Below, piece after piece: positions 33,275 to 63,371 of a stretch of DNA of 64,000 bases (the stretch's first letter is position 1; the number at the start of each line of letters is the position of its first letter). The stretch is from an uncultured virus (IMG/VR IMGVR_UViG_3300035686_000079) (lineage: Duplodnaviria > Heunggongvirae > Uroviricota > Caudoviricetes): IMG/VR virus record IMGVR_UViG_3300035686_000079; one strand, written 5' to 3'. Below the pieces are notes generated by a model that worked only from the letters and a program-made list of their open reading frames with translations, was not told the origin of the DNA and searched no databases. Position numbers and translations under genes: made by a program.

Positions 33275-33688
33275 TCACTTACCACGTTGATTCTCAATAT
33301 ATTTTTTAACTACCTCCGTACTGACCTGACCTGTCGTTGCAACGAAATAGGTTGGAGTCCACAGGGCAGGTAGTTTTTTTAGTTCTGGGAACTCTCGTCT
33401 TAGATGATGTGAAGCCCTGCCTTTGACCCATCGAGCAATATCGGCAGGTGATTCATGAGTAGGTGCATTAATGAAGAAATGAACGTGGTCAGGTTGAACC
33501 TCTAATGCAATCAGTTTCCATCCATGTTCTGTGACCAAATCAAAGATAATCTCCTGCAACCGATGAGCTACTGCTTTAATAAGCACAGGCTTACGTCGCT
33601 TAGGTACGAATACAAAATGATAATTGATTGACGACACTGAGTTTTCAGTGCGTCGATACTCGTAATCTTCACTTGAAAGTTTAGCCAT
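33275..33688 (-). CDS. tnpA: IS200/IS605 transposase TnpA
   Basis: YHFVFVPKRRKPVL, QPDHVHFF, LWTPTYFVATTG, KYIENQ. Confidence 0.96.
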   Translation of the reverse strand: MAKLSSEDYEYRRTENSVSSINYHFVFVPKRRKPVLIKAVAHRLQEIIFDLVTEHGWKLIALEVQPDHVHFFINAPTHESPADIARWVKGRASHHLRREFPELKKLPALWTPTYFVATTGQVSTEVVKKYIENQRGK

Positions 33689-33754
33689 ATTCTTTATTTG
33701 TGTTGACTATAAGTGTAGTAGACAATATACTCAACTACAGGAGGTGATGACAAG

Positions 33755-35134
33755 TTGTATAAAACAATTCCCATCAAAGCCAGCTTCAATGAGGAAGAAG
33801 AGTCCTTTTGGACTACCATGTGTTTTCACGCCAACAGTCTAATCAATTGTGCTATTTACCATACTCGCCAAACTCACTATGCACGACTTGAAGAACAAGG
33901 GAATGCATTCACGACCTACTGGCGAGGTGATGAATTGCGCTACGGCTGGAAGACTTACAGATGTAAGACTACTTATCCAGAATTAGACAAGGTACTCAAA
34001 GGCAATCCACACTACAAAGCTTTAGCTGCTCAAGCTTCCCAACAAACACTCAAGTCTGTTGGTGAGTCGATTTCCAGCTATAACGAACTGGTTAGCCTCT
34101 ACTATAAAGGTGAAGTTGATAGACCATCTTTGCCTAAGTACAGAAAGAAAGGTGGATTAGCTTCTGTTACTTTCCCCCGCCAAGCATTGACGTACAAAGA
34201 TGGTTGCTTTTATCCATCAGTTAGTAGAGAAACTAAGCCTCATCTGATGACTGATGTTGCTTTACCTCTGCCCGACTTCATTGATTCTGACTGGGTTAAA
34301 GAAGTAACAATTCGTCCCAACTATGGACAGTTGTGGATTGACTGGGTAATTGATGATGGCAAAGAAGCCGTCACTTATAATCCAAACCTTGATTATTCTC
34401 AAGCTTGGAGCTTTGACCACGGCGGTACGAATTGGATGACTGGTGTTTCGACTCGTGGCAAGAGCCTAATCATTGACGGTCGTAAACTCAAGTCAATGAA
34501 TCAAGGCTACTGTCGTTTGGTTGCTAAGTACAAAACTGGAAAATCGGACTTTTACTGGGATTCCAATTTAGACAGAATACAGCGCAAGCGGAACAGTCAG
34601 ATGCGTGACGCTGTTAACAAAGCAGCAAGATTCATTATCAATAAGTGCCTGACTGACAAGATTGGAAATCTCATCATCGGCTGGAATGAAGAGCAAAAGA
34701 ATGGCTCTAACATGGGAAAGCGTAACAATCAAAACTTTGTTGCCATTCCCACTAAGCGACTGATTGACAGATTACAACAACTCTGTCTAGAGTACGGAAT
34801 TGTCTTAACGATTACAGAAGAAGCGTACACCAGTAAAGCGTCTTACCTTGATGACGATAGCCTCTACAAATTTGGTGAAAAACCCAAGGGATGGAAACCG
34901 TCAGGCGAAAGAGTAAAACGTGGACTGTACAGAACGTCTTCTGGACAACTGATTAGCGCTGATGCCAATGCAGCAGCAAATATAGCTAGAAAAGTAGCCA
35001 CACAGCTAGGGTTAAACCTAGCCGAGGTGGGTAGGGGAGATTTGGTACTCCCGAAACGATACGATCTGTTCACTCACCTGTCTAGATCGTATCGTGAGAA
35101 ATGTGGAGCGACGTGTCTTAAGACCGTCGCGTAG
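33755..35134 (+). CDS. tnpB: TnpB nuclease (IGWN/EEAYTSK-type RuvC, no C-terminal Zn finger)
   Basis: SFDHGG, IIGWN, TEEAYTSKAS, RVKRGLY, ADANAAANI. Confidence 0.92.
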   Translation: MYKTIPIKASFNEEEESFWTTMCFHANSLINCAIYHTRQTHYARLEEQGNAFTTYWRGDELRYGWKTYRCKTTYPELDKVLKGNPHYKALAAQASQQTLKSVGESISSYNELVSLYYKGEVDRPSLPKYRKKGGLASVTFPRQALTYKDGCFYPSVSRETKPHLMTDVALPLPDFIDSDWVKEVTIRPNYGQLWIDWVIDDGKEAVTYNPNLDYSQAWSFDHGGTNWMTGVSTRGKSLIIDGRKLKSMNQGYCRLVAKYKTGKSDFYWDSNLDRIQRKRNSQMRDAVNKAARFIINKCLTDKIGNLIIGWNEEQKNGSNMGKRNNQNFVAIPTKRLIDRLQQLCLEYGIVLTITEEAYTSKASYLDDDSLYKFGEKPKGWKPSGERVKRGLYRTSSGQLISADANAAANIARKVATQLGLNLAEVGRGDLVLPKRYDLFTHLSRSYREKCGATCLKTVA

Positions 35135-47058: not shown

Positions 47059-48732
47059 GTGAATACCTGGGCAGAAGCAAAGTTTGGTGGCGTTCAGCCG
47101 CCTACCAATGGAGTGAAGACCTCCAATGAAGAGACTTTTCCTCAAGCCGTCCCAAAAGAATGTAAGTACAATCACCTGTACCGTTCTTTTGACATATTTG
47201 TCATTGATTCCTTGTTCGGAGGCATCAGTTGTCACGCAGTTAACCGAGACCTCGATCTCCGTATTGAAGAGCATCATCCTCATAGCGAGATGTTCCACGG
47301 TGCGCCCGTGGCACGGTTTGCGATGCGAAGGAAGGTAGACGAGCTAATCGAATCTCGTGGACTTGATATTCCACCACATGTGGAGAAAATTCCCAAACAG
47401 GAAGAATCGGCAACGGAAATATCCAGAAGAATTCACCTAAAAGAACTAGAGAGACAAAGGATTAAGAGAATGAACAAGGTTTTTGCGTTTGACGCCTGCT
47501 CCGGTATTCAGGCGGGAGCAATATTCTTTACTGCAACAATCAAGCTTAATGATATTGCAGACATGTTTAATATCGATATTTCAAAACTTCAGCAGATCGA
47601 GCGCTATCAACGGATTCCTTCGGGAGCCAGAATTAATGGCTTAGTAAGTTACATGAAAATCAACCAGGAGACATACATCCTGCCTAGCCTGACTTGCTCG
47701 ATTGAGGGTGAGTATGAATTTGAGCAGTACGGGCCTCGGACTAAGGCAGGGGTTCTAACCCTGAAAGCTGAGACAGAACTCCACTTAATTGATGGGGGAC
47801 ATCGACGAGGCGCTATTGAGAAAGTCGTTAAAGAGTTGGCGAAACTTGGTGAGGAAGACATTGCTGTTAAGTTTGTGATCGACAGGGGATTGAGGCAAAG
47901 GCGGCAGTGGTTCAGCGATACCAATCGTTTTGCAAAGACTCCACCTAAATCCTTGTGTTTGGACTACGATCGCCGCGATAGAGAGGCGAACTTCCATAGG
48001 GATGTTATTGACGACATTCCTGCATTCGCGAAATACACCGAGCGGACAAAAGGTTCGGCTGGGGGCAAGAGCTCTCAGAATCTGTTCGTACTGACTTGGC
48101 TGCATAGCGCCAATCAGATTTTACGACCAAACCAAGATTATCAGACTGATTTTAACTACTGTACGGCGTTTTGGACTGCGCTGAGCGAGATTATTGATTG
48201 GCGTGATTACGACCCTGCATCCCCAAGCAGTCCCTCTCCAGAGAAGATGCGCGAGAAGTTGTGCTGCACGGCGATCGTCATCAAAGCGCTTGCCCAGATT
48301 GGGCAGGAGATGGCTTATCAATTTTCGGAGAAACTCGATAGTATCAAGGAGTTTCTGAAGCCGCTAGAGACGATCGACTGGTCTAAGTCCAATCCTGACT
48401 GGGAGGGCATTGCAATTGAAAAAGTTGGGGACAAATATAAGGTTTTGACAAAAAATATGCCTCAAATTGTGGCCTATTTAAAGTGGAAGCTAAATCAAGG
48501 AGGGTCAAAAGCCCCAATGTCTCAGCAAGAGTCTGAGTGGGTCGCTAAGCTTTCGGTTCCAGTAGCCGACGAACCAGAGCCTATTAAGAGCGAACCAGCT
48601 CCATCAGAGCCAGCTAAGTCCAAGAGAAATTCAAATTCATCTAATACTAACAAGCCCAAAACCAGTACTTCCAAAGCTCAGCCTTCAGCTACAGCCAAAA
48701 CCAACAAGAAAAGCACGGCAAATCGAAGCTAA
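47059..48732 (+). CDS. DndB-like (DGQHR-domain) protein
   Basis: GIQAG..RYQR..YILPSLTCSI..IDGGHRRGAI..QWFSDTNRFAK..DYDRRD; start may be later (MNKVFAF). Confidence 0.82.
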   Translation: MNTWAEAKFGGVQPPTNGVKTSNEETFPQAVPKECKYNHLYRSFDIFVIDSLFGGISCHAVNRDLDLRIEEHHPHSEMFHGAPVARFAMRRKVDELIESRGLDIPPHVEKIPKQEESATEISRRIHLKELERQRIKRMNKVFAFDACSGIQAGAIFFTATIKLNDIADMFNIDISKLQQIERYQRIPSGARINGLVSYMKINQETYILPSLTCSIEGEYEFEQYGPRTKAGVLTLKAETELHLIDGGHRRGAIEKVVKELAKLGEEDIAVKFVIDRGLRQRRQWFSDTNRFAKTPPKSLCLDYDRRDREANFHRDVIDDIPAFAKYTERTKGSAGGKSSQNLFVLTWLHSANQILRPNQDYQTDFNYCTAFWTALSEIIDWRDYDPASPSSPSPEKMREKLCCTAIVIKALAQIGQEMAYQFSEKLDSIKEFLKPLETIDWSKSNPDWEGIAIEKVGDKYKVLTKNMPQIVAYLKWKLNQGGSKAPMSQQESEWVAKLSVPVADEPEPIKSEPAPSEPAKSKRNSNSSNTNKPKTSTSKAQPSATAKTNKKSTANRS

Positions 48733-48734
48733 CT

Positions 48735-48780
48735 AGCGATGGCATTATCCACCTCTAAGTGGATAATGCCATCGCTTTTG
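48735..48780 (+). terminator. intrinsic terminator
   Basis: AGCGATGGCATTATCCAC..GTGGATAATGCCATCGCT TTT. Confidence 0.85.
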
Positions 48781-48799
48781 TCTATCGGAACAGAGAATT

Positions 48800-49615
48800 A
48801 TGGTAATTACAACTCCCCTCCGTTACCCTGGCGGAAAGGCAAAGGCTATCAAAAAAATAATCAAATATCTGCCTCATGATTTTTCTGAATACAGAGAACC
48901 TTTTGTAGGGGGAGGTTCTCTGTTTATTTATTTGAAGCAGAAGCAGCCTTACCTAAAAATTTGGATAAACGACTTAAATACTGAGTTGTTTCTTTTCTGG
49001 AAAGTCGTTCAACTTGATTGCGAGACCCTAGTTAAAGAGGTGCGAAAAATAAAATGTCAACACACAAACGGCAGGTTGCTTTTTGATACTCTCGCCACAA
49101 CAAAACTAGAAGAATGCTCAGAGCTTCAGAGAGCAGTGCGTTTCTATGTTCTCAATAGAATCTCTTTTTCAGGTACAGTAGATGCTGGCGGCTTTTCTTT
49201 AAGCTCTTTTCAAGGGAGATTTACTGATTCAGCTATAGAGCGCTTGTCCAAGTTAAACCAGCTATTAGGAGGTAAGGACGCGGTAACAAATTTAGATTAC
49301 AGTGAAGTGCTAGAGACGGGTGGGAAGGATGTGTTTATGTTCTTAGATCCACCTTACTGGGTTGCAATCAAGTCAAAACTGTATGGAAAGAGAGGTAGTT
49401 TACACACCTCTTTCGATCACGTTCGGTTTGCTGAGGCATTAAAAAACTGCAAGCACAAGTGGTTAATCACTTATGATGACTCACCTCAGATTCGGCACAA
49501 CTTTAAATGGGCTAATATTTTTGAGCTTCAGCTCCAGTACAGCATGAATAACTACAAACAGGTCAAAGCTGAAAAAGGAAAAGAACTCATAATCACAAAC
49601 TATGATGTTAAGTGA
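48800..49615 (+). CDS. Dam-like (D12 class) N6-adenine DNA methyltransferase
   Basis: PLRYPGGK, EPFVGGGS, INDLN, FLDPPY. Confidence 0.92.
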   Translation: MVITTPLRYPGGKAKAIKKIIKYLPHDFSEYREPFVGGGSLFIYLKQKQPYLKIWINDLNTELFLFWKVVQLDCETLVKEVRKIKCQHTNGRLLFDTLATTKLEECSELQRAVRFYVLNRISFSGTVDAGGFSLSSFQGRFTDSAIERLSKLNQLLGGKDAVTNLDYSEVLETGGKDVFMFLDPPYWVAIKSKLYGKRGSLHTSFDHVRFAEALKNCKHKWLITYDDSPQIRHNFKWANIFELQLQYSMNNYKQVKAEKGKELIITNYDVK

Positions 49616-51377: not shown

Positions 51378-51886
51378 GGTAGCGCAAAGAACTCCTCCGG
51401 CCCAACCATCTTGGGTTGAAGTTGCGGACCTTCGATCGTCCCCTTATGGGCGTTAACTAATTTGTACTGGTAGAACACGAGGTTACCCCGGTGGATGTTC
51501 GACGGCTCGTCGGTTAGGTGCATCTGGTAATACACGCCCTCAAACAACAGCCGAGTGTCTTTGGTTACTTTCCCTTGGTGGAAGCCGTAGCGCGGCAACA
51601 GGTTAACGTACAGCTCGCTAGCGCGGACAATGCCCCCCTTGCCACCATCTACAGACAGCTGAGCCATGCTCTGTACCTCCACGAAGCCTACAACTTTGTC
51701 GGTACAAACGTATATCTCCTTCTGTGGAATGCCGTGGGCATAGTCAATTTGCCGATCGACTATGCGCTTGCACAAACAGAGGTAATGATCGTGTTCCTTG
51801 ACCAGACGATCGAATGCCGGGATGTCGTACCAAGGTTGCTGGGGCGTTCCTTGGGAGGTGCTGGCGGGATATTTAGGAAGGTACAT
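51374..51886 (-). CDS. hypothetical, possible head-closure/adaptor protein
   Basis: Downstream of baseplate genes; beta-rich. Confidence 0.5.
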   Translation of the reverse strand: MYLPKYPASTSQGTPQQPWYDIPAFDRLVKEHDHYLCLCKRIVDRQIDYAHGIPQKEIYVCTDKVVGFVEVQSMAQLSVDGGKGGIVRASELYVNLLPRYGFHQGKVTKDTRLLFEGVYYQMHLTDEPSNIHRGNLVFYQYKLVNAHKGTIEGPQLQPKMVGPEEFFALP

Positions 51887-51895
51887 CTTGGATAA

Positions 51896-52120
51896 TCAAT
51901 AGTAAACTTTCACGTCGGCTAGCTCGGCGTAATTGAGCTTTTCGGCGGCTTCTTTGATCGCCTCTTGCTGTTTTTTCAACTCCCCAAACTCTTCGCGCTC
52001 CTCCTCTGTTAAGTTGTACCACAGTATAGTTCTCTCGTTGTCCATACTGCTTAACTGAGTTCTTAAGTGCGGTATGAGTGTTGTTATGGTTAATAGCCTA
52101 GCTACTTTTGGGGAAATCAT
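51896..52120 (-). CDS. hypothetical protein
   Basis: ATGA overlap with the baseplate J stop. Confidence 0.55.
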   Translation of the reverse strand: MISPKVARLLTITTLIPHLRTQLSSMDNERTILWYNLTEEEREEFGELKKQQEAIKEAAEKLNYAELADVKVYY

Positions 52121-53304
52121 CGAATCCAATTAAACGTGACACTATCATTAAGTTTAAACAAAGCTCCCAGTTTAATTTCAGCTTCCAGCTCAGCCAAGGG
52201 TTGTCCTGTTTCGGCATGAAACAGATTCATATTGTCAATTCCGTAGATGTTGCCAGAACCCTGAACTAGGGCAGAAGCTAGGCTAGAACTAAAAGTTCGA
52301 TCGCCCCACGAACCATACGGAGGATTGATTTGGTTTACTACTACAGACGCGGCTTCCGTGAGTACTTGGGAGGCGGAGATGGAGCTGACAATTCTCGTGT
52401 CTATAGTTCCATTCAACGGAATGATTTCTGATTTGTAGACTCCTACTCTCGTCCCAGAAAGCTTTCGGTCTACCATCACTTCTTGAACGTAGTCCGACAC
52501 ATCTGGAGGATAAACCACAATTGAAATCATATCCGCGTCATAGCCAGGATTGGTGTATTCAATTCCTGGTAGAACACGCGCTTTTTGAGCGCCCGACCAG
52601 AGGGCGGTGAGGTAGTAGTGCCGATCGGTTGTTATTCCGGTGGGCATTTGCAATTGCTGCCTTGCTCTCAAGACTGCCTGGGACAATGTTTCGGCATCAC
52701 GTCCGGGATAAACGATCGTCGTCCCTTGGGCGCGATCGACATAGTTGAGTAAGTCTTGCAGCCAAACAAACTCTCCCGCCGAGATATTTGGAGAAATTTT
52801 GCCACGACGGTTGAGGCGAGCGGGGACGACAACAGAGGACTGGGAACTGGGAATTTCTGCGTATTGGGTGGTAACGCAATGTAAATCGGCTTCCCGGTTG
52901 CTGAACACTTTGGTGCCAACTGGGATAATGGCGGCTTGGGTGCCGTAGTCGTATTCACCAGACGATCGGTAAAAGGTTATGTCGATGCGTGGGTAATCCG
53001 CATCCTGCATCTCAATTCCCCAGACCCTCAGCCAGTTTACGTAGACATAATCTGGAATTAGGTTCGCTTCATGCATTTGCATCTGCATGAGGAAAATAAC
53101 GTGCTCCATTAGGATGCCTTCGGCGGTCAGTGGGTTACGACTGGAGAACGGGCTAGGAGTGCCATCCGCTAGAGGCATGGCTAACCTGTCCATGGTTTCT
53201 CTGTAGAGTTGTTTCCCGTCAATATCAAATAGACGCCGTGGTCTAATATTGTTCGGCTCCTGAGACAACAGGTCGTCGAGCTGGTAAAACCATTCGTATG
53301 TCAT
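52117..53304 (-). CDS. baseplate J/gp47-like wedge protein (5' 37 codons supplied by a recoded copy)
   Basis: EANLIPD..WLRVWG, IIPVGTKV, VVVPA, GRDAETLSQAVLR, GITTDRHY. Confidence 0.8.
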   Translation of the reverse strand: MTYEWFYQLDDLLSQEPNNIRPRRLFDIDGKQLYRETMDRLAMPLADGTPSPFSSRNPLTAEGILMEHVIFLMQMQMHEANLIPDYVYVNWLRVWGIEMQDADYPRIDITFYRSSGEYDYGTQAAIIPVGTKVFSNREADLHCVTTQYAEIPSSQSSVVVPARLNRRGKISPNISAGEFVWLQDLLNYVDRAQGTTIVYPGRDAETLSQAVLRARQQLQMPTGITTDRHYYLTALWSGAQKARVLPGIEYTNPGYDADMISIVVYPPDVSDYVQEVMVDRKLSGTRVGVYKSEIIPLNGTIDTRIVSSISASQVLTEAASVVVNQINPPYGSWGDRTFSSSLASALVQGSGNIYGIDNMNLFHAETGQPLAELEAEIKLGALFKLNDSVTFNWIR

Positions 53305-53358
53305 TTTGCTTGAAGATTTGATGACTTATTGTATGGTATCGAATTGAATTTAACGCAA

Positions 53359-53385
53359 ACAACCCGCCCAGTCCGGACGGGTTGT
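53359..53385 (-). terminator. terminator hairpin
   Basis: ACAACCCG..CGGGTTGT downstream of the 53411 gene. Confidence 0.65.
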
Positions 53386-53410
53386 AGACAGGATTTTGAT
53401 TCATCAAAGG

Positions 53411-53671
53411 CTAATCGTTGACTTCTTCCGCTCCTTGACCAAAACTTTCTTCTGTCAGCCAACGTTGCTTTAATTCTTCAGTAGTGCATCCTTGGGCTTT
53501 TGCTTCATCTTCAATCAGTCCGTTGATCGTGGGTACATTTGCCTCAATTCGAGCGCTAATTATTTGCCCTGCATAGGTCGCCTTTGGCTTACCATGCCAC
53601 CTCGACCAGAAAATCAAATTTCGCATCTCGGCTTCGCTGAGCTGGATGGTCACACGGTAGACTTTTGCCAT
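53411..53671 (-). CDS. small RHH-like DNA-binding protein
   Basis: YRVTIQLSEAEMRNLIFWSRWHGKPKATYAGQII. Confidence 0.6.
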   Translation of the reverse strand: MAKVYRVTIQLSEAEMRNLIFWSRWHGKPKATYAGQIISARIEANVPTINGLIEDEAKAQGCTTEELKQRWLTEESFGQGAEEVND

Positions 53672-53862
53672 TTTTCAAAAAGAATTGCTGATTACGATCT
53701 AATTCTATGCTTATTCTGCTCGTATGTGGTTAAATGATGATGAGGGCAATACAACGTCCTCAAAAGCAAGTGGTCGCACCCACTTAGGAGTACGACCAAC
53801 CGTGTCTGATATAGGCGATGACAGCACCTAAGTCAGGCAACTTCACCTCCACATGAGTAGAC

Positions 53863-54276
53863 ATGCAAAGGAGCATATTCATCATGACAAATTTTGTTAT
53901 TTATAGCGCAAGTTACGGGCTTTCTCTTTCAGTTGAGACAGCCCGCAATGTCTGCGCTTACTTTTTTGGGTACGATACTCTACCCCCAGAACAGCGACTA
54001 GAGAAAGAAACCGCTCGCGGATACAAATCAAGATGTGTCAGGCTATTAAACAAGCTGTGTTCTGTGAGCGAACGAAGCATTAGGCGTTGGGGCAGAGGTT
54101 TAGATTTCGATAATATGCCACCGATTCGCCAAGCGCAGCTCACTATACTGATGTTGCGCGATCGCCTGCAAAAAGCCGAATCCCAGATTCAGCAGAAAGA
54201 TGAGCAAATCAAGAAGATGCGACGTGCGATCGATCACCTTCGGTGGCAATTGGATGAAGCTCGTAGGGTAGCTTAG
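53863..54276 (+). CDS. HTH plus coiled-coil protein upstream of tnpB
   Basis: RLLNKLCSVSERSIRRWG; C-terminal heptads. Confidence 0.6.
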   Translation: MQRSIFIMTNFVIYSASYGLSLSVETARNVCAYFFGYDTLPPEQRLEKETARGYKSRCVRLLNKLCSVSERSIRRWGRGLDFDNMPPIRQAQLTILMLRDRLQKAESQIQQKDEQIKKMRRAIDHLRWQLDEARRVA

Positions 54277-54314
54277 CACCTAGTTCAAGAGAAAGTACAA
54301 CTGTTCAATATCTC

Positions 54315-55619
54315 ATGAGACTAACGCACATCTACAGAATTAAGCCTTCCACTGAGCAAGTCGCCATTATGGACGACTGGCTAGAGTTACTAAGGCGGCA
54401 TTTCAACTACGCCCTCGGTCAACGATTTGATTGGTTGCGTAGAACACGATGCCAGATTGATAGATGTAGCTTGGTTTCAGAGCCAATTGGCGATATACTA
54501 GGTAAATTTCCTGGGTACAACTTTCAAGCTGGGGAGCTGAAGCAAACCAAGCAACTGTTCCCTGCGTACAAAGAAATTCATGCTGAGGTTCAACAGCAGA
54601 ATCTCAAGCGCTTAGACAGGGCTTGGGAGAGATGGATAAAGCCTGATAAATCGGGCAAGAGAGCGGGTAGACCCAGGTTCAAAAAGAAAGGGGAAATGCG
54701 CTCGTTCACCTTTCCCAGGATTAACTGCCCAAAAGCAGGAGCAAACAAGATTGATGATGGCGTTTTAACCTTATCCAAGATAGGGTCAATGCCAGTCATC
54801 ATGCACCGTCCATTCCCTGACGGATTTGAGTTGAAAACTGCAACCGTCGTCAAGAAAGCTGATGGATGGTATATCGCTGTTTCTCTAGAAGACGATTCTG
54901 TTCCAAGTTCCAAGCCCATTGATGAAGTTAAGAGTGTAGTGGGCATTGACCTGGGGCTTAAGTCTTTTTTGGTGACATCTGATGCTGAGACTGTAGAAGT
55001 TCAACAACACTACAGAAAAACCCAGAAGCACCTTGCCCGTCAGCAGAAACGCTTAGCCAGGAAAGAACCTGGTTCTATTAACGCACAAGATCAAAAGGAA
55101 AAAATCTCCCGCATCCACCAACGTATAGGTAGGAAGCGGGAGATTTTTCATTACAATGTCGCTCATCAACTCGTCAAAAAGTATGACTTAATAGCTGTTG
55201 AAGACTTAAATATCAAGGGATTAGCTAAAACACGTTTAGCTAAATCAATTTACGATGTGGCTTGGGGTAAGTTCCTGACAATACTGGAAGCAGTGGCTCT
55301 CAGAAGCGGCGTACATCTTGTTAAGGTTAGCCCTCACAACACCACAGTAAATTGTTCTGGCTGCGGCACTAAAGTACCCAAAACATTATCTGTTCGTCTT
55401 CACGAATGCCCGAAGTGCAACCTGGAGATAGACAGAGACGAGAATGCTGCAATCAACGTTTTACATAAAGCGTTAACTGCCGTGGGACTCACGGTGGCTG
55501 CCTATCGACGGTTAAGTGGTAGCACTCCGGATGAAATAGGAATGCCTAACTGCGAAGTTGGGAAGCTGCCGCTATATTCGCAAGAATTAGCGGTAGAGGA
55601 TGTCACAGTCTCACGATAA
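54315..55619 (+). CDS. tnpB: TnpB RNA-guided nuclease with intact RuvC
   Basis: GIDLG (D), VEDL (E), CSGC/CPKC Zn finger, DRDENAA (D); stop codon lies beyond the right end. Confidence 0.95.
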   Translation: MRLTHIYRIKPSTEQVAIMDDWLELLRRHFNYALGQRFDWLRRTRCQIDRCSLVSEPIGDILGKFPGYNFQAGELKQTKQLFPAYKEIHAEVQQQNLKRLDRAWERWIKPDKSGKRAGRPRFKKKGEMRSFTFPRINCPKAGANKIDDGVLTLSKIGSMPVIMHRPFPDGFELKTATVVKKADGWYIAVSLEDDSVPSSKPIDEVKSVVGIDLGLKSFLVTSDAETVEVQQHYRKTQKHLARQQKRLARKEPGSINAQDQKEKISRIHQRIGRKREIFHYNVAHQLVKKYDLIAVEDLNIKGLAKTRLAKSIYDVAWGKFLTILEAVALRSGVHLVKVSPHNTTVNCSGCGTKVPKTLSVRLHECPKCNLEIDRDENAAINVLHKALTAVGLTVAAYRRLSGSTPDEIGMPNCEVGKLPLYSQELAVEDVTVSR

Positions 55620-55626
55620 AGCTGTT
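55480..55626 (+). ncRNA. TnpB omegaRNA (scaffold to 55606, guide from 55607)
   Basis: Overlaps tnpB 3' end; hairpin CTGCCGCTA..TAGCGGTAG then GGATGTCAC; 5' boundary approximate. Confidence 0.65.
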
Positions 55627-55717
55627 TTCCGTCGATATCAAACAGACGCCGAGGCCTTATATTATTCGGCTCCTGAGATAACAGGTCGTCGAGCTGGTAA
55701 AACCATTCGTAAGTCAT
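55607..55717 (-). pseudogene. orphaned original 5' end of baseplate J gene (37 codons)
   Basis: Same peptide as 53304-53194; ATG overlaps the gp25 TGA; interrupted at the element right end. Confidence 0.88.
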
Positions 55718-56286
55718 ATGTCGGTTGAAAATGATAGCGGCACGGGTGTGGTGTTGAATTCAGAAGGGAGCGATCGCAATTCAAATGCCTCACCATCAAG
55801 AGAAATATTGCGAATCAACTCGGCAACTGATTGAACACGGTTGTGGTAAACCGAAGGTTGGAAGTAACCGAAGGATAAAACACTGTTTTCGCCAGAGCCG
55901 ATCGCAGTAAATGCGATATTGACCGTGATGCAGTTAGTGTAGACGGTCTGCGGGTCTACGCTAACTTGCAAGGCATTAATCCCAATAAACCCCCAGCGGT
56001 TCCACCGTTCGATCTCCTCTTTACAGTGGTACACGAAATAACTACAAGTCTGGGAGTTGAGCGAGTCAAATAAGTCGGGAGCTATACCCAGTCGGACGTG
56101 GAAGACACTTTCTCCCGGTCGCATCAGAAGTACTACCAAGATTCGGCGAGCCACCACATGTGAAATAGCTCGTGCCTGCTCAAATGTGTTGCCGTCGTCT
56201 GGATACGAGCCGACAATGTTCAATCCTCCCCAGTTGTTGTGAGGAGGGAATAGTGCCCATTCGGAGCCGATAAAAGTTTGCTTCAC
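55714..56286 (-). CDS. GPW/gp25-like baseplate wedge protein
   Basis: RRILVVLLMRPGESVFHVRLG..LFD; precedes baseplate J. Confidence 0.75.
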   Translation of the reverse strand: MKQTFIGSEWALFPPHNNWGGLNIVGSYPDDGNTFEQARAISHVVARRILVVLLMRPGESVFHVRLGIAPDLFDSLNSQTCSYFVYHCKEEIERWNRWGFIGINALQVSVDPQTVYTNCITVNIAFTAIGSGENSVLSFGYFQPSVYHNRVQSVAELIRNISLDGEAFELRSLPSEFNTTPVPLSFSTDI

Positions 56287-56492
56287 TGATTTTCCTCTGG
56301 CACTAACTTAACGAGAGATGTGATCGCCTTTTCTAAGTAAAATTGCCCCATACCCTGATAATGTATGGGGTTTATTTTTTGCCGTGCCTCTAAGCGATCG
56401 TGTATAGTAGCCAATGCTACGATCATTTCTTTGGTTTCATCGTCGAAACTCAATATGGGTTCCGATACTGGAGATGAACTTTCTGTGTTCAT
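56283..56492 (-). CDS. small helical-hairpin protein
   Basis: Overlaps the gp25 start; IHDRLEARQ..YLEKAITSL. Confidence 0.55.
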   Translation of the reverse strand: MNTESSSPVSEPILSFDDETKEMIVALATIHDRLEARQKINPIHYQGMGQFYLEKAITSLVKLVPEENQ

Positions 56493-56519
56493 TGATTTTT
56501 CTGTTGACTCGAAAACCTT

Positions 56520-57593
56520 GTGGTCAATCTAGATCGAAGTATATTCCAAGATGTAGAACTGGGGGAATTGGGACTATCTCTCCCAGTTGGCTTAAAGGTG
56601 GGCGACAAGCGGTTTGTTGACTACACGTTCTATTCCTACACGGGGGTAAACGACCTGGAGCTGGGTGACCTGGAAGACGTTAACAAAAACCACAAGTATC
56701 GAATCAACCGTATCTATTCCAAATTGCTCTCCCTAATGGTGGAGTCGATAGACAACTACCAGCTAAAGGAAATTTGCCAAATGCTGGATACTACCCCAGT
56801 CAGGCTATTTGAGAGCATGTATTTGGCAGATGTACTGTCAATGCTATTGAATCTACGACTGTTTAGTTACGGCTCAGAGATTGGCTTAAACGGAATTTGC
56901 CCCTGTGCCGAACAGCATCAACTAAGGGCTGGGCAACAGGGGCAAGGCTATCACGACCTCAATTCGATCGTTATTCGGCGGGTGCATGAGTCGATCGCCA
57001 ATCCCTTCCCATTAACGGCGGAATTAGTTGATGGAGTTGAAGTAGATGGCAATCTTATCAAGACAATAGAATTTGAGCCATTGCGGTTTGAGCAGTTGAG
57101 GGAACTCAAGGAGTTACAAGAATACCCCCTACACATCCGGCTTTTGTATTTGTGTTCTACCAACCCCAAATTCAACGATGCTCTGTACGATCGCCTGTCG
57201 TTGGATGACATCGACATACTCAGAAAAGCCTCTCTGCTGCTAGAGCGGTTTGGCCCCAACCGGGATATTGAGATGGACTGCGCCTGGGACAAGTGTCCAC
57301 ATGGCGGCATGGAGTGGAAATCACGCTTGATTCTGGGGGAGAACTATGAAGAGTTTTATGCAGGGCTGATGTGTGCTCCTAGGATGCACGCGGATATTGG
57401 AGGCACGAGGGCGTATTTCGATGAGATTTCATTCTTTTGGAGTACCGGGCAAGATGCCCCCTCGAAAGACCTGGATGCAATACTAACCAAGACCCCTTTG
57501 AGCCGGGATAACATCACCGAGAAGCTCAAGGAGTTCTATGCCTCGCAGAAGAAGGCGCACGATGAAGCTATGGCTAAGTCGAAACGAAAATAA
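56520..57593 (+). CDS. putative tail/baseplate assembly protein
   Basis: LPVG..., MYLADVLSMLLNLRLFSYG..CPC, LVDGVEVDG..IEFEPLR, C..CPH; T4 gp26/chaperone-like pattern. Confidence 0.5.
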   Translation: MVNLDRSIFQDVELGELGLSLPVGLKVGDKRFVDYTFYSYTGVNDLELGDLEDVNKNHKYRINRIYSKLLSLMVESIDNYQLKEICQMLDTTPVRLFESMYLADVLSMLLNLRLFSYGSEIGLNGICPCAEQHQLRAGQQGQGYHDLNSIVIRRVHESIANPFPLTAELVDGVEVDGNLIKTIEFEPLRFEQLRELKELQEYPLHIRLLYLCSTNPKFNDALYDRLSLDDIDILRKASLLLERFGPNRDIEMDCAWDKCPHGGMEWKSRLILGENYEEFYAGLMCAPRMHADIGGTRAYFDEISFFWSTGQDAPSKDLDAILTKTPLSRDNITEKLKEFYASQKKAHDEAMAKSKRK

Positions 57594-61532: not shown

Positions 61533-61829
61533 TGTTGTATTTATGTAAGTTGCATTGCTATATATAAGTATAGCTTATATTAAGTAAATATGCTACTTTT
61601 AACGTGTTTTTAGGGTATTTTAGGGTAAATTTAGCTAAAAATAGGGTGTTTTTGAATAAATTTAATGTATTTTTATGTAAAACGGTATGTACGGAATCCG
61701 TAAAGCGCTCAAAAAAAAACAGAAAAATCGACCATTTCGTTGTAGTGACGAATAGTCGATTTATGCTTGTAGCGCGACACGCTCCGACCGAGTTTTACCT
61801 TAATGTCGGCAGAAGGCTCCCGTTATAAT

Positions 61830-63321
61830 CAACGCGGACAACGGAACCGCGAGTGTCCCCACCTTCAACGAAGTAAGGTGGGGCGGTAAGCGGAAAAAAG
61901 AGAAGACTCGATGTCTTCTCTTTTTTCATATCTGTTGGTATCATTTATATACAGTTGCGAGATAGTCAATGCCCACACGTCGAGCTACCTTCCGCCTCTA
62001 CCCCACCTCAGTGCAGGAACAAAAACTGCGCTGGGGAAGGAAGATGCATCAAGAGCTGTATAACTCGGCATTGTCCAACCGTAAAACTCAGTACCAAAAG
62101 TTTGGGAACAACGTTGATTACTACCACCAGCAAGGTAGCCTACCCGCTTTCAAGGAAGTTTGGGTAGAATACAAGTTACTCAATGCTGGTAGCTTGCAAG
62201 CCACACTAAAACGTGTAGATTTTGCATATCAACGCTTTTTTCAAGGCTTAGGTAAGTACCCCCGTTTCAAGTCAATCCGACATTATTCTGGATGGACGTA
62301 TCCCGACAGTCGCCAAGGCTTTAAAGTTCACACCACAGGTGTTAATGGCTATTTAGAGCTGACCGACCTAGGGATACAAATCCAGATGAGAGGAAAAGCT
62401 AGAAGTTGGGGTAGACCAACGACCTGCACCATCGTCTACCGCCAGAACAAATGGTACGCATCTATAACAGTAGATATCACCAGTATCAAGCGAGAGCTAG
62501 GGACAGGTGCTATTGGGATAGATATTGGTTGCAAGGCTGCACTAGCTATCACTGATGGTGAAAACCATCAATTGATAGATGCTCCTAAGTTTCTCCGCAA
62601 GGCTGAAACTCAAATTAAGCAAGCATCTAAGTCTAAGCGTAGAAAAAGGGCACCAAATCGTAAGTCCAAGACCAAGGCTTCTAGACGATGGAAGAAGGCA
62701 TCTGACCGAGTAGGCAAACTAACTCGCAAAGTAGCCAACTCCAGACAGAACTGGGTTCATCAGGTAGCAACAGAAATCACGCGCAGTAACAGCCTCGTTG
62801 CTACTGAAAAGCTAGAAGTCAAGAATATGACCCGTAAGGCAAAGAAAGGTAAGCGTAAGAAGCAGAAGGCAGGACTGAATAAGTCTATCCTGGATGTAGG
62901 TTTTGGGATGCTAAAGAGTGCAATTAAGTACAAGGTTGAAGAAGGTGGTGGGCAGTTCATTGAAGTACCCACCAGGAAAGTTAAACCTTCTCAAACTTGT
63001 CCTAAATGCGGACATCAGAAACCTAAAACATTGGATGAGCGCATTCATCAATGTGGTGAGTGTGGCTACCAACAGGATAGAGATATTGCCTCTGCTGAGG
63101 TCTGTCTTTACTGGGTCAAAGGTACTCTGCCGGGGCTGGGAACCAACCTCGTAGACGCCGATGGGTCTAGCTCTACTTCATCACCCAAGGGGCCCAAGTC
63201 CTGCGGAGGAATGAAGCAACTAGCCCAAGTGAAACGTCAAAAGTCTGTGCGCACTATAGTTGATAAAGGTGACGGGAATGCAGAAACCCGTCGCTCAACG
63301 AAGTAGCGACGGGTAGTTCAT
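61830..63321 (+). mobile_element. tnpB-only (IS1341-type) element nested in another element's right-end hairpin
   Basis: Left and right hairpins share loop CAACGAAGT (61857-61883; 63286-63314); right end ..GTAGTTCAT; boundaries +/-1-2 nt. Confidence 0.85.
61969..63306 (+). CDS. tnpB: TnpB RNA-guided nuclease
   Basis: FRLYPT, GIDIG, TEKLEVKNM, CPKCG..CGECG, DRDIASA. Confidence 0.95.
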   Translation: MPTRRATFRLYPTSVQEQKLRWGRKMHQELYNSALSNRKTQYQKFGNNVDYYHQQGSLPAFKEVWVEYKLLNAGSLQATLKRVDFAYQRFFQGLGKYPRFKSIRHYSGWTYPDSRQGFKVHTTGVNGYLELTDLGIQIQMRGKARSWGRPTTCTIVYRQNKWYASITVDITSIKRELGTGAIGIDIGCKAALAITDGENHQLIDAPKFLRKAETQIKQASKSKRRKRAPNRKSKTKASRRWKKASDRVGKLTRKVANSRQNWVHQVATEITRSNSLVATEKLEVKNMTRKAKKGKRKKQKAGLNKSILDVGFGMLKSAIKYKVEEGGGQFIEVPTRKVKPSQTCPKCGHQKPKTLDERIHQCGECGYQQDRDIASAEVCLYWVKGTLPGLGTNLVDADGSSSTSSPKGPKSCGGMKQLAQVKRQKSVRTIVDKGDGNAETRRSTK

Positions 63322-63371
63322 TTCGGTACTCCGAATTAGTGGCGGGAGGATGTCAATTTTGGCGAGTGAAG

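Follow-up and report, generated by a model that had tools for sequence, protein, structure and literature searches.

Within the 64,000-nt stretch of DNA from an uncultured Caudoviricetes virus analyzed here (IMGVR_UViG_3300035686_000079; the window hereafter), positions 53189..55717 hold a cassette in which tnpB, the nuclease gene of an IS605-family insertion sequence (IS), lies inside a baseplate-J gene (J) whose first 37 codons occur twice. Copy A remains attached to a gp25-like gene and stops at the right end of the IS, and copy B is fused to the remainder of J. J is whole again because copy B supplies codons 1-37, with the old 5' end left as a gp25-coupled orphan. The features of the locus are listed below, where ORF denotes an open reading frame and TAM a target-adjacent motif, and where the evidence for each assignment is given in brackets.

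52117..53193, minus strand: baseplate-J gene body, codons 38-395 (homology, PHROG)
53189..53193, plus strand: TAM-like target motif TCCAT (sequence and the motif of relatives)
53194..53304, minus strand: copy B, comprising J codons 1-37 and joined to the gene body (sequence)
53305..53410, minus strand: new 5' leader of the restored J, 106 nt (unlike the gp25 end)
53411..53671, minus strand: ORF86, small ribbon-helix-helix-like protein (weak profile match)
53884..54276, plus strand: ORF137, 130 aa when read from the conserved start, with the longest ORF beginning at 53863 (homologues, AlphaFold)
54306..55606, plus strand: segment homologous to canonical IS605-family elements, tnpB and right end (DNA homology)
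54315..55619, plus strand: tnpB, 434 aa (NCBIfam, Pfam, PDB profile)
55477..55606, plus strand: omegaRNA scaffold, 3' portion with two hairpins and an invariant tail, GAGGATGTCAC, that reaches the right end (covariation)
55607..55624, plus strand: predicted guide template AGTCTCACGATAAAGCTG, the reverse complement of copy A J codons 37-32 (flank rule)
55607..55717, minus strand: copy A, orphaned J codons 1-37, reading on into the IS as a 71-aa ORF (sequence)
55714..56286, minus strand: gp25-like baseplate wedge gene, probable ancestral upstream neighbor of J (profile)

Inspection of the two copies bears out the duplication first reported in a preliminary description of this DNA. J codons 1-37 are present at 55717-55607 and again at 53304-53194, each as 111 nt on the minus strand, both encoding MTYEWFYQLDDLLSQEPNNIRPRRLFDIDGKQLYRET, and the pair is the sole long direct repeat that a repeat search found in the region. 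The earlier count of 16 differences in 111 nt, all synonymous and leaving the peptide identical, is likewise reproduced; fifteen fall at third positions and one at the first position of Arg35 (CGT to AGA). The changed codons are 2, 13, 18, 20, 21, 22, 25, 28, 30 and all of 32-37, which confirms the uneven distribution previously described: codons 32-37 are each altered, with 7 changes within the last 18 nt by the junction, and just two codons are altered among codons 1-17, where a random synonymous redraw would be expected to alter 9.6 ± 1.8. Across codons 18-37, 13 of 20 codons are changed, matching the 13.1 ± 2.0 expected for such a redraw and indicating saturation. The contrast between the two segments (2/15 versus 13/20 codons) gives p = 0.005 in Fisher's test.

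The duplication begins precisely at the ATG. No homology between the copies was detected upstream of this codon, where 830 of 2000 shuffles equaled the observed local score, and gp25 homology is untraceable upstream of copy B; the start of copy A overlaps the stop of the gp25-like upstream ORF (ATGA), as had been noted. Orphan copy A carries zero changes of the non-synonymous type, and a codon-usage likelihood gave no separation of copies A and B. On these sequences, slow divergence of the two copies in place can be excluded, since a copy A decaying free of constraint would have gained non-synonymous changes. Either the two copies derive from separate lineages, each functional until recently, or selection changed copy B rapidly. 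The new leader of J holds a terminator-like hairpin at 53362-53378, after ORF86; a promoter and terminator scan of the leader returned a site count not above that of shuffled sequence. As a separate observation, the TAM-adjacent 20 nt of copy B (53194-53213) form an inverted repeat with 55003-55022 in tnpB, matching at 18 of 20 positions. The paired segments code for KQLYRET in J and QQHYRKT in TnpB, and both mismatches are the two that would alter the J peptide. Of 3000 random synonymous recodings only 2, and of 1000 shuffles none, gave a match of this quality, which may nevertheless have arisen by chance, given the multiple comparisons made.

The restored J ORF (395 aa) is colinear over its whole length with 17 relatives and matches PHROG 6, baseplate wedge subunit, at E 6.7e-12; Pfam Baseplate_J is carried by some J relatives, and the J N-terminus is poorly conserved across the family. 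For the upstream neighbor, a profile built from the gp25-like ORF and six homologues matches solved gp25-like PDB chains (E 6.5e-12), and 4 of 7 family members match Pfam GPW_gp25. Copy A appears to occupy the ancestral position, because a gp25 homologue sits directly upstream of J, ending ≤36 nt from it, in 9 of the 28 loci that hold J relatives. In these nine loci with gp25-J adjacency, neither an insertion between gp25 and J nor a homologue of ORF86 or ORF137 was found.

The right end of the element could be placed independently of the duplication. The statement that copy A breaks exactly at the tnpB right end is upheld by related IS copies, which put that end at 55606. A DNA search of 401 cyanobacterial genomes gave matches in 49, and all of those that reach the 3' end stop at window positions 55605-55608. 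Seven aligned cyanobacterial IS copies share ...GAGGATGTCAC(A) and then diverge completely, and two closer copies in metagenome contigs diverge immediately past 55606. Distant relatives end in ...GTCACA, and base 55607 is therefore ambiguous by 1 nt. The last 130 nt of the omegaRNA form two hairpins in which 11 of 19 pairs carry compensatory changes among 8 sequences, and the 3' tail is invariant. This scaffold appears to be conserved and to overlap the tnpB 3' end. No Rfam family matched window positions 52000-57000 at E up to 1.

In ISDra2, as described in Karvelis 2021 (PMC8612924), the ~16 nt of flank beyond the right end serve as the guide, and the target of TnpA doubles as the TAM. Because of this flank rule, the guide here is predicted to read AGTCTCACGATAAAGC..., the reverse complement of J codons 37-32, a sequence that occurs once in the 64-kb window when up to three mismatches are allowed. 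Comparison of the guide AGTCTCACGATAAAGCTG with the allele carried by the cassette itself, GGTTTCTCTGTAGAGTTG, recovers the mismatches given in the preliminary description at positions 1, 4, 7, 9, 10, 13 and 16. That is to say, 7 of 18 positions differ, with 5 among the first 10 TAM-proximal positions, and the carrier allele is predicted to be resistant to its own nuclease. In several cyanobacterial genomes, five loci (L032, L072, L079, L080 and L081) preserve the conserved omegaRNA and right-end tail but have hardly any tnpB upstream, or none, and may be solo right-end or omegaRNA remnants.

Assignment of the nuclease is supported by NCBIfam guided_TnpB (271.6 bits versus a cutoff of 100) and by Pfam OrfB_IS605, Cas12f1-like TNB and HTH_OrfB_IS605, all above their cutoffs. 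The RuvC D-E-D triad had been called intact, and residues D212, E296 and D375 are indeed invariant in 12 relatives, as are C347/C350/C365/C368 of the zinc finger, whose two CxxC pairs are complete. In the alignment with a solved TnpB-like chain of 408 residues, the triad corresponds to positions 191, 278 and 361, and D191 is shown to be catalytic in Karvelis 2021 (PMC8612924). Measured against the closest copy, the ratio of non-synonymous to synonymous substitution rates (dN/dS) of tnpB is ~0.08. TnpB is thus intact and under constraint. A TldR-type domesticated TnpB regulator was rejected on the basis of the intact RuvC triad. At 55580-55619, a 1-nt difference from the closest IS, located in the last hairpin, removes the usual tnpB stop; the tnpB ORF therefore runs 13 nt beyond the right end into the guide region.

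The left side of the cassette differs from that of a canonical element. TCCAT at 53189-53193 is the reverse complement of Met38 and the first two bases of Asp39, as earlier pointed out, and GTCCAT (53188-53193) stands immediately before copy B. The motif NCCA(A/T) precedes the left end (LE) at constant spacing in 9 of 12 related IS605 loci with tnpA, in the forms TTCCAT, GCCAT, GTCCAT, TCCAA, ACCAA and GTCCAA, and likewise precedes the window's own IS at 779-850; the remaining 3 of 12 loci comprise one truncated left end and two unlike left ends. In agreement with the preliminary description, the LE hairpin is absent from the cassette, in that a profile from nine relatives gave no match in 53194-54314 at E up to 10 and recovered the control at 850-779 with E 3e-10. 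The reported lack of tnpA holds as well. None lies between 53194 and 55606, and the tnpA genes of the window are found elsewhere, at 218-784 and 33275-33688. Transposition appears to have been lost because the cassette has neither an LE nor a tnpA or recombinase domain, and a tnpA available in trans would need an LE to act on, leaving the element apparently unable to transpose.

The closest IS relative, in genome G317 (76-78% nucleotide identity), is a canonical IS605 element with divergent Y1 tnpA and tnpB, and homology of the window to it begins at 54306, 9 nt upstream of the tnpB ATG. The simplest first event would be that an IS605 element inserted in the normal way between codons 37 and 38 of J, on the 3' side of TCCAT, because the family motif precedes copy B, the right end is shared and the closest relative is canonical. 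Such an insertion lies 3' of the family target motif without a target-site duplication, and the 111-nt repeat is instead a diverged copy of a gene end. From this element the half comprising tnpB, the omegaRNA and the right end appears to remain, and the half comprising tnpA and the LE appears to have been replaced by an ORF86/ORF137 module, the new leader and copy B. An integrase-mobilized element was considered and rejected, as no tyrosine or serine recombinase was found and neither ORF86 nor ORF137 has a Pfam or NCBIfam match. The tnpB of the closest relative is itself split into halves by two ORFs of 559 and 615 aa (L078, G317:C95, 2260-8433), which by sequence, with no family search, read as group II intron reverse transcriptases.

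The replacing module appears to be independent and foreign to the IS605 element, because a homologous divergent ORF86/ORF137 pair occurs without TnpB in the cyanobacterial chromosome G149. ORF86 has 48 representative relatives and a weak profile match to CopG (E 0.014) and ParD. Ribbon-helix-helix (RHH) repressors are described as known IS605 passengers in bioRxiv 10.64898/2026.09.24.754181, and ORF86 is only a candidate for one. ORF137 has 11 homologues at 58-73% identity and is modeled as a helical, helix-turn-helix-like domain together with a long coiled coil (AlphaFold predicted local distance difference test score, pLDDT, 87). Pfam, NCBIfam, a PDB profile search and Foldseek gave no useful match for ORF137; one marginal PHROG match is to a family of unknown function (E 0.01), and atlas matches serve as leads only. 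Sampling of 401 + 401 cyanobacterial genomes and a search of IMG/VR turned up no close homologue of ORF137. In G149 the pair stands among two more RHH-like ORFs, an HNH-endonuclease-like ORF and a cytosine-methyltransferase-like ORF (L112, G149:C1, 5400-9850; names taken from translations, with no family search), in a region that resembles a mobile or defense island, and the ORF137-like protein there has two domain repeats. GC content of the cassette is no different from that of its flanks.

Two sequencing runs, X1 and X2, were compared with the window as contigs, not raw reads, and contigs drop rare variants. X1 may be the window's own source sample; X2 is from another study and appears to represent one strain at a depth of ~4. 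In X1, four junction-bearing contigs are identical to the window at an equal depth of 27-29, and both junctions fall within contigs (53193/53194 in record 1 and 55606/55607 in record 6). The X1 contigs break only at a 32-nt stretch that is identical between copies A and B, record 1 running to 53296 and record 2 beginning at 53269. In X2, J differs at 28/448 and 36/803 positions, the latter in a contig that spans J, copy B and ORF86; gp25 differs at 54/485 positions and the next gene at 33/638. The cassette core of X2 differs at 0/527 and 0/323 positions (0/850), with flanks differing by 4.5-11%. An identical core in diverged flanks would be left by a cassette that moves between backgrounds, though the pattern is not specific to that process. 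The tnpB region reaches a depth of ~300, and the TnpB family is therefore multicopy in the community. An X2 joint of 53193 to 56526 was discarded as unreliable, with only 20 letters on one side.

X2 also holds, in record 12, a third J 5' allele, which is ATGA-coupled to a gp25 differing by 11% and differs from copy B at 16/110 nt; alleles this far apart therefore circulate naturally. This record has only 8 nt beyond codon 37, so both a naive allele and an orphan copy fit it. Alleles A, B and X2 of the J 5' end are each ~15% apart, compared with 4.5-6% in the J body. We favor copy B being a captured natural allele, perhaps from a locus with unusual nucleotide-level diversification, because the divergence outreaches a self-targeting guide and because the third gp25-coupled allele is as far from copy B. 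The preliminary description had proposed that the 5' end was recoded to confer self-immunity, and this claim divides into two parts. The own allele is mismatched to the guide, as it held; the idea that recoding arose for the sake of self-immunity is weakened by divergence over 60 nt against a guide of ~16 nt and by the equally distant X2 allele.

Searches for relatives of J and for second examples of the arrangement covered phage, viral, plasmid and cellular sequences. A phage collection gave no DNA match to the window, and its sole J protein match was a Gordonia phage at 24% identity; scans of viral and genome contigs with J alone found no relatives. J profile scans yielded 22 loci from metagenomes and 6 from genomes, none above 42% identity, and a guide match is therefore unreadable there. 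One further J relative is 48% identical, beside the nearest at 60%. The architecture search covered 126 TnpB instances at 125 loci, 71 with at least 2.5 kb upstream, with the window serving as positive control. Matches at L036, L132, L168 and L172, which lie ≤~400 nt from the tnpB start, were read as LE/RE similarity or tandem pieces and set aside. On a related 188-kb contig (L016, 3569-6410, and L168), a tnpB lies 578 nt downstream of J, and another tnpB, elsewhere on that contig, is flanked by a 248-nt repeat of 87% identity.

The anatomy of the cassette and its targeting logic can be regarded as established at the level of sequence. From these we propose the following course of events. Recombination would have brought a J 5' end from a diverged lineage, as opposed to slow divergence in place, because the orphan copy has no change of the non-synonymous type. 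TnpB and its omegaRNA would still be made, with the last 16-20 nt of the orphan copy as the guide. The complex would cut uninterrupted J alleles that carry TCCAT and the A-type sequence, in co-resident plasmid copies or in co-infecting relatives, and the carrier would be spared because 7 of 18 positions of its own allele, 5 among the first 10, mismatch the guide. Once cut, an allele could be lost, resulting in exclusion, or could be repaired from the carrier, with the J body and the gp25/copy-A flank acting as homology arms. Such repair would copy the cassette in without inactivating J, and the effect would be that of a natural nuclease-plus-resistant-rescue drive. Homing or exclusion by the cassette is plausible, and we consider the chances for and against it evenly balanced. 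The fuller proposal is more tentative and, on present evidence, rather doubtful: a natural RNA-guided home-and-rescue drive, in which TnpB and omegaRNA without a transposase spread among phage-plasmids by cutting J alleles and being repaired in, carrying a resistant gene start, with divergence of the J 5' end as the trace of an arms race.

Several results weigh against the proposed course of events. The preliminary description had suggested that uninterrupted gp25-J alleles in relatives should read TCCAT followed by the guide; no such allele was retrieved, the nearest J relative being 60% identical in protein, and no contig in X1 or X2 joins 53193 to 55607. A search of the kind it suggested, for tnpB loci flanked by recoded duplications, gave no second example, the window being the sole positive among the 126 TnpB instances. 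The LE boundaries of relatives were deduced from a common motif and constant spacing and not from empty sites. Codons 1-17 of the copies are 96% identical, including the 32-nt perfect stretch; loss of the cassette by repeat recombination is therefore possible. Zero replacements at saturated synonymous divergence, where ~5 would be expected in codons 18-37 at a TnpB-like dN/dS, are unexpected for two natural alleles. In X2, moreover, a stretch outside the cassette (51567-51937) is also identical (0/371), depth is ~4, and tnpB is multicopy there.

Much of the locus can also be explained as an inert scar, in which an IS605 element disrupted J during a period when the replicon was plasmid-maintained, one illegitimate crossover, with a diverged relative, later gave back a working J, and nothing is driven today. 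The partner would have been a relative already carrying ORF86/ORF137 ahead of its own J, and one crossover in the tiny tnpA-tnpB spacer, where homology begins at 54306, together with the partner's intact J would explain everything. With that crossover and an intact partner J, the left boundary at the TAM follows automatically, and the guide matches the old allele only because an IS605 element always takes its guide from the flank. The occurrence of ORF86/ORF137 elsewhere as an independent module, the circulation of alleles ~15% apart (X2 record 12, 16/110 from copy B), the IS-rich replicon with at least four IS605-family elements in 64 kb and hence frequent insertions, the lack of a further example of the architecture in 126 TnpB instances and the lack of any naive target seen are all in keeping with this account. 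It is harder to reconcile with a fully intact tnpB and omegaRNA, with the nine adjacent-pair relatives that have nothing inserted between gp25 and J, with a duplication that starts exactly at the ATG and has no gp25 homology upstream of copy B, with identical peptides despite saturated synonymous divergence in codons 18-37, and with a cassette core that is identical in a second, diverged strain. We regard such a scar as a serious possibility that falls well short of an even chance. Recoding in place is improbable. Here copy B would at first have been an exact duplicate, TnpB self-cleavage would have selected synonymous escapes on the TAM side, and repeat recombination would have selected further divergence. 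All 16 differences are synonymous, codons 32-37 are all changed with differences falling off with distance from the junction, and the orphan lacks non-synonymous-type changes, which places the changes in the expressed copy or before the two copies came together; each of these is as this account would have it. Saturation nonetheless extends to codon 18, ~60 nt away, against a guide given as ~16 nt in Karvelis 2021 (PMC8612924), one or two seed mismatches should suffice for escape, the 51 nt that would best serve repeat recombination are still 96% identical, and copy B lies just as far from a third natural allele.

A trivial origin, in which copies from two strains or molecules were misjoined through the 32-nt stretch during assembly, would fit the X1 contigs breaking precisely at that identical stretch, the use of contigs and no raw reads, and the chance that X1 is the window's own source. 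The X1 junction contigs are identical to the window at equal depth (27-29) with both junctions inside contigs, a 4.5%-diverged strain from another study has J, copy B and ORF86 contiguous, and the 32-nt repeat is shorter than ordinary reads, all of which makes a chimera very improbable.

The cassette can be compared with several known systems. It shares with IS200/IS605 TnpB-omegaRNA elements the nuclease family, the right end, the omegaRNA, a flank-derived guide, a TAM equal to the TnpA target, a position 3' of the target, the lack of a target duplication and residence on a multicopy replicon. It differs from them in having no LE or tnpA, hence no excision or transposition, in its foreign two-gene module, and in the replacement of the 5' end of the gene by one mismatched for cleavage, such that the insertion is not a knock-out. 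TnpB has been reported as a gene drive for IS elements in multicopy plasmids (Mears 2025, PMC11870625), and non-restorative homing between phages or plasmids is discussed in a review (PMC13565253). In the free-standing homing endonucleases of T-even phages (Seg and Mob), as that review (PMC13565253) describes them, a nuclease gene likewise lies between or within conserved phage genes, self and non-self are distinguished by substitutions in a conserved neighbor, and spread, as would be the case here, is by recombinational repair with co-conversion. In contrast to Seg and Mob, recognition here would be RNA-guided and not by protein, and the element lies inside a coding sequence with a duplicated gene end. 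Replacement of a gene end by an element is also known from phage 21. The e14 element in Escherichia coli icd, with its icdC pseudogene, supplies a substitute gene end that is mostly synonymous and leaves the original end orphaned, as set out in PMC13626634. There, a site-specific integrase is involved and the 3' end is replaced, whereas the window has a replaced 5' end with its start codon and an RNA-guided nuclease, with no recombinase domain found.

IStrons, which combine a group I intron with TnpB, similarly place a TnpB element in a gene without destroying its function, and TnpB-only forms are thought to home (PMC10690162). Here, in contrast, the gene is restored at the DNA level by duplication and not by splicing; an IStron was rejected, since the Rfam search over 52000-57000 (E up to 1) matched no group I intron ribozyme. 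Synthetic HomeR (PMC7968924) and ClvR (PMC6442612) are engineered Cas9 drives in insects, whereas the present locus is a natural TnpB locus on a prokaryotic replicon with a putative drive role. A literature search confined to one paper collection found no natural arrangement of this kind in print. The locus combines known TnpB homing, gene-end replacement as in e14/icd and the logic of synthetic rescue drives, in a combination not found in print there. If active, it would be the first natural RNA-guided nuclease linked to a resistant rescue copy of its essential target gene, the same design that gene-drive engineers reached independently in HomeR and ClvR. An active cassette would further show how an essential gene can house an IS with no self-splicing intron involved, how TnpB can persist once its transposase is lost, as a weapon of homing or exclusion among competing phages or plasmids, and why many tnpB genes stand alone. 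The locus offers a testable TnpB with a predicted TCCAT TAM and a ready pair of sensitive and resistant targets.

Gene content of the window includes a virion structural protein, a head protease, endolysins, ParA/ParB, two DnaN, several methyltransferases and DndB. A search of PLSDB gave one J relative (40% identity) on the 223-kb Nostoc plasmid pC052_F, where DndB is also found near J. The replicon is a large cyanobacterial, multicopy phage-plasmid-like element, as read from its gene content (virion genes, ParA/ParB and IS elements) and from the Nostoc plasmid that shares J and DndB. Among the IS605-family elements of the window, a tnpA and tnpB pair at 1-850 is cut by the window start and has its LE at 850-779 with the target TCCAA, and a second tnpA and tnpB pair lies at 33275-35134. 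A tnpB-only element with both ends present is located at 61795-63356, 17 nt past a gene. At 47059-49615, a few kb from the baseplate genes, a DndB-like gene is accompanied by a Dam-type methyltransferase.

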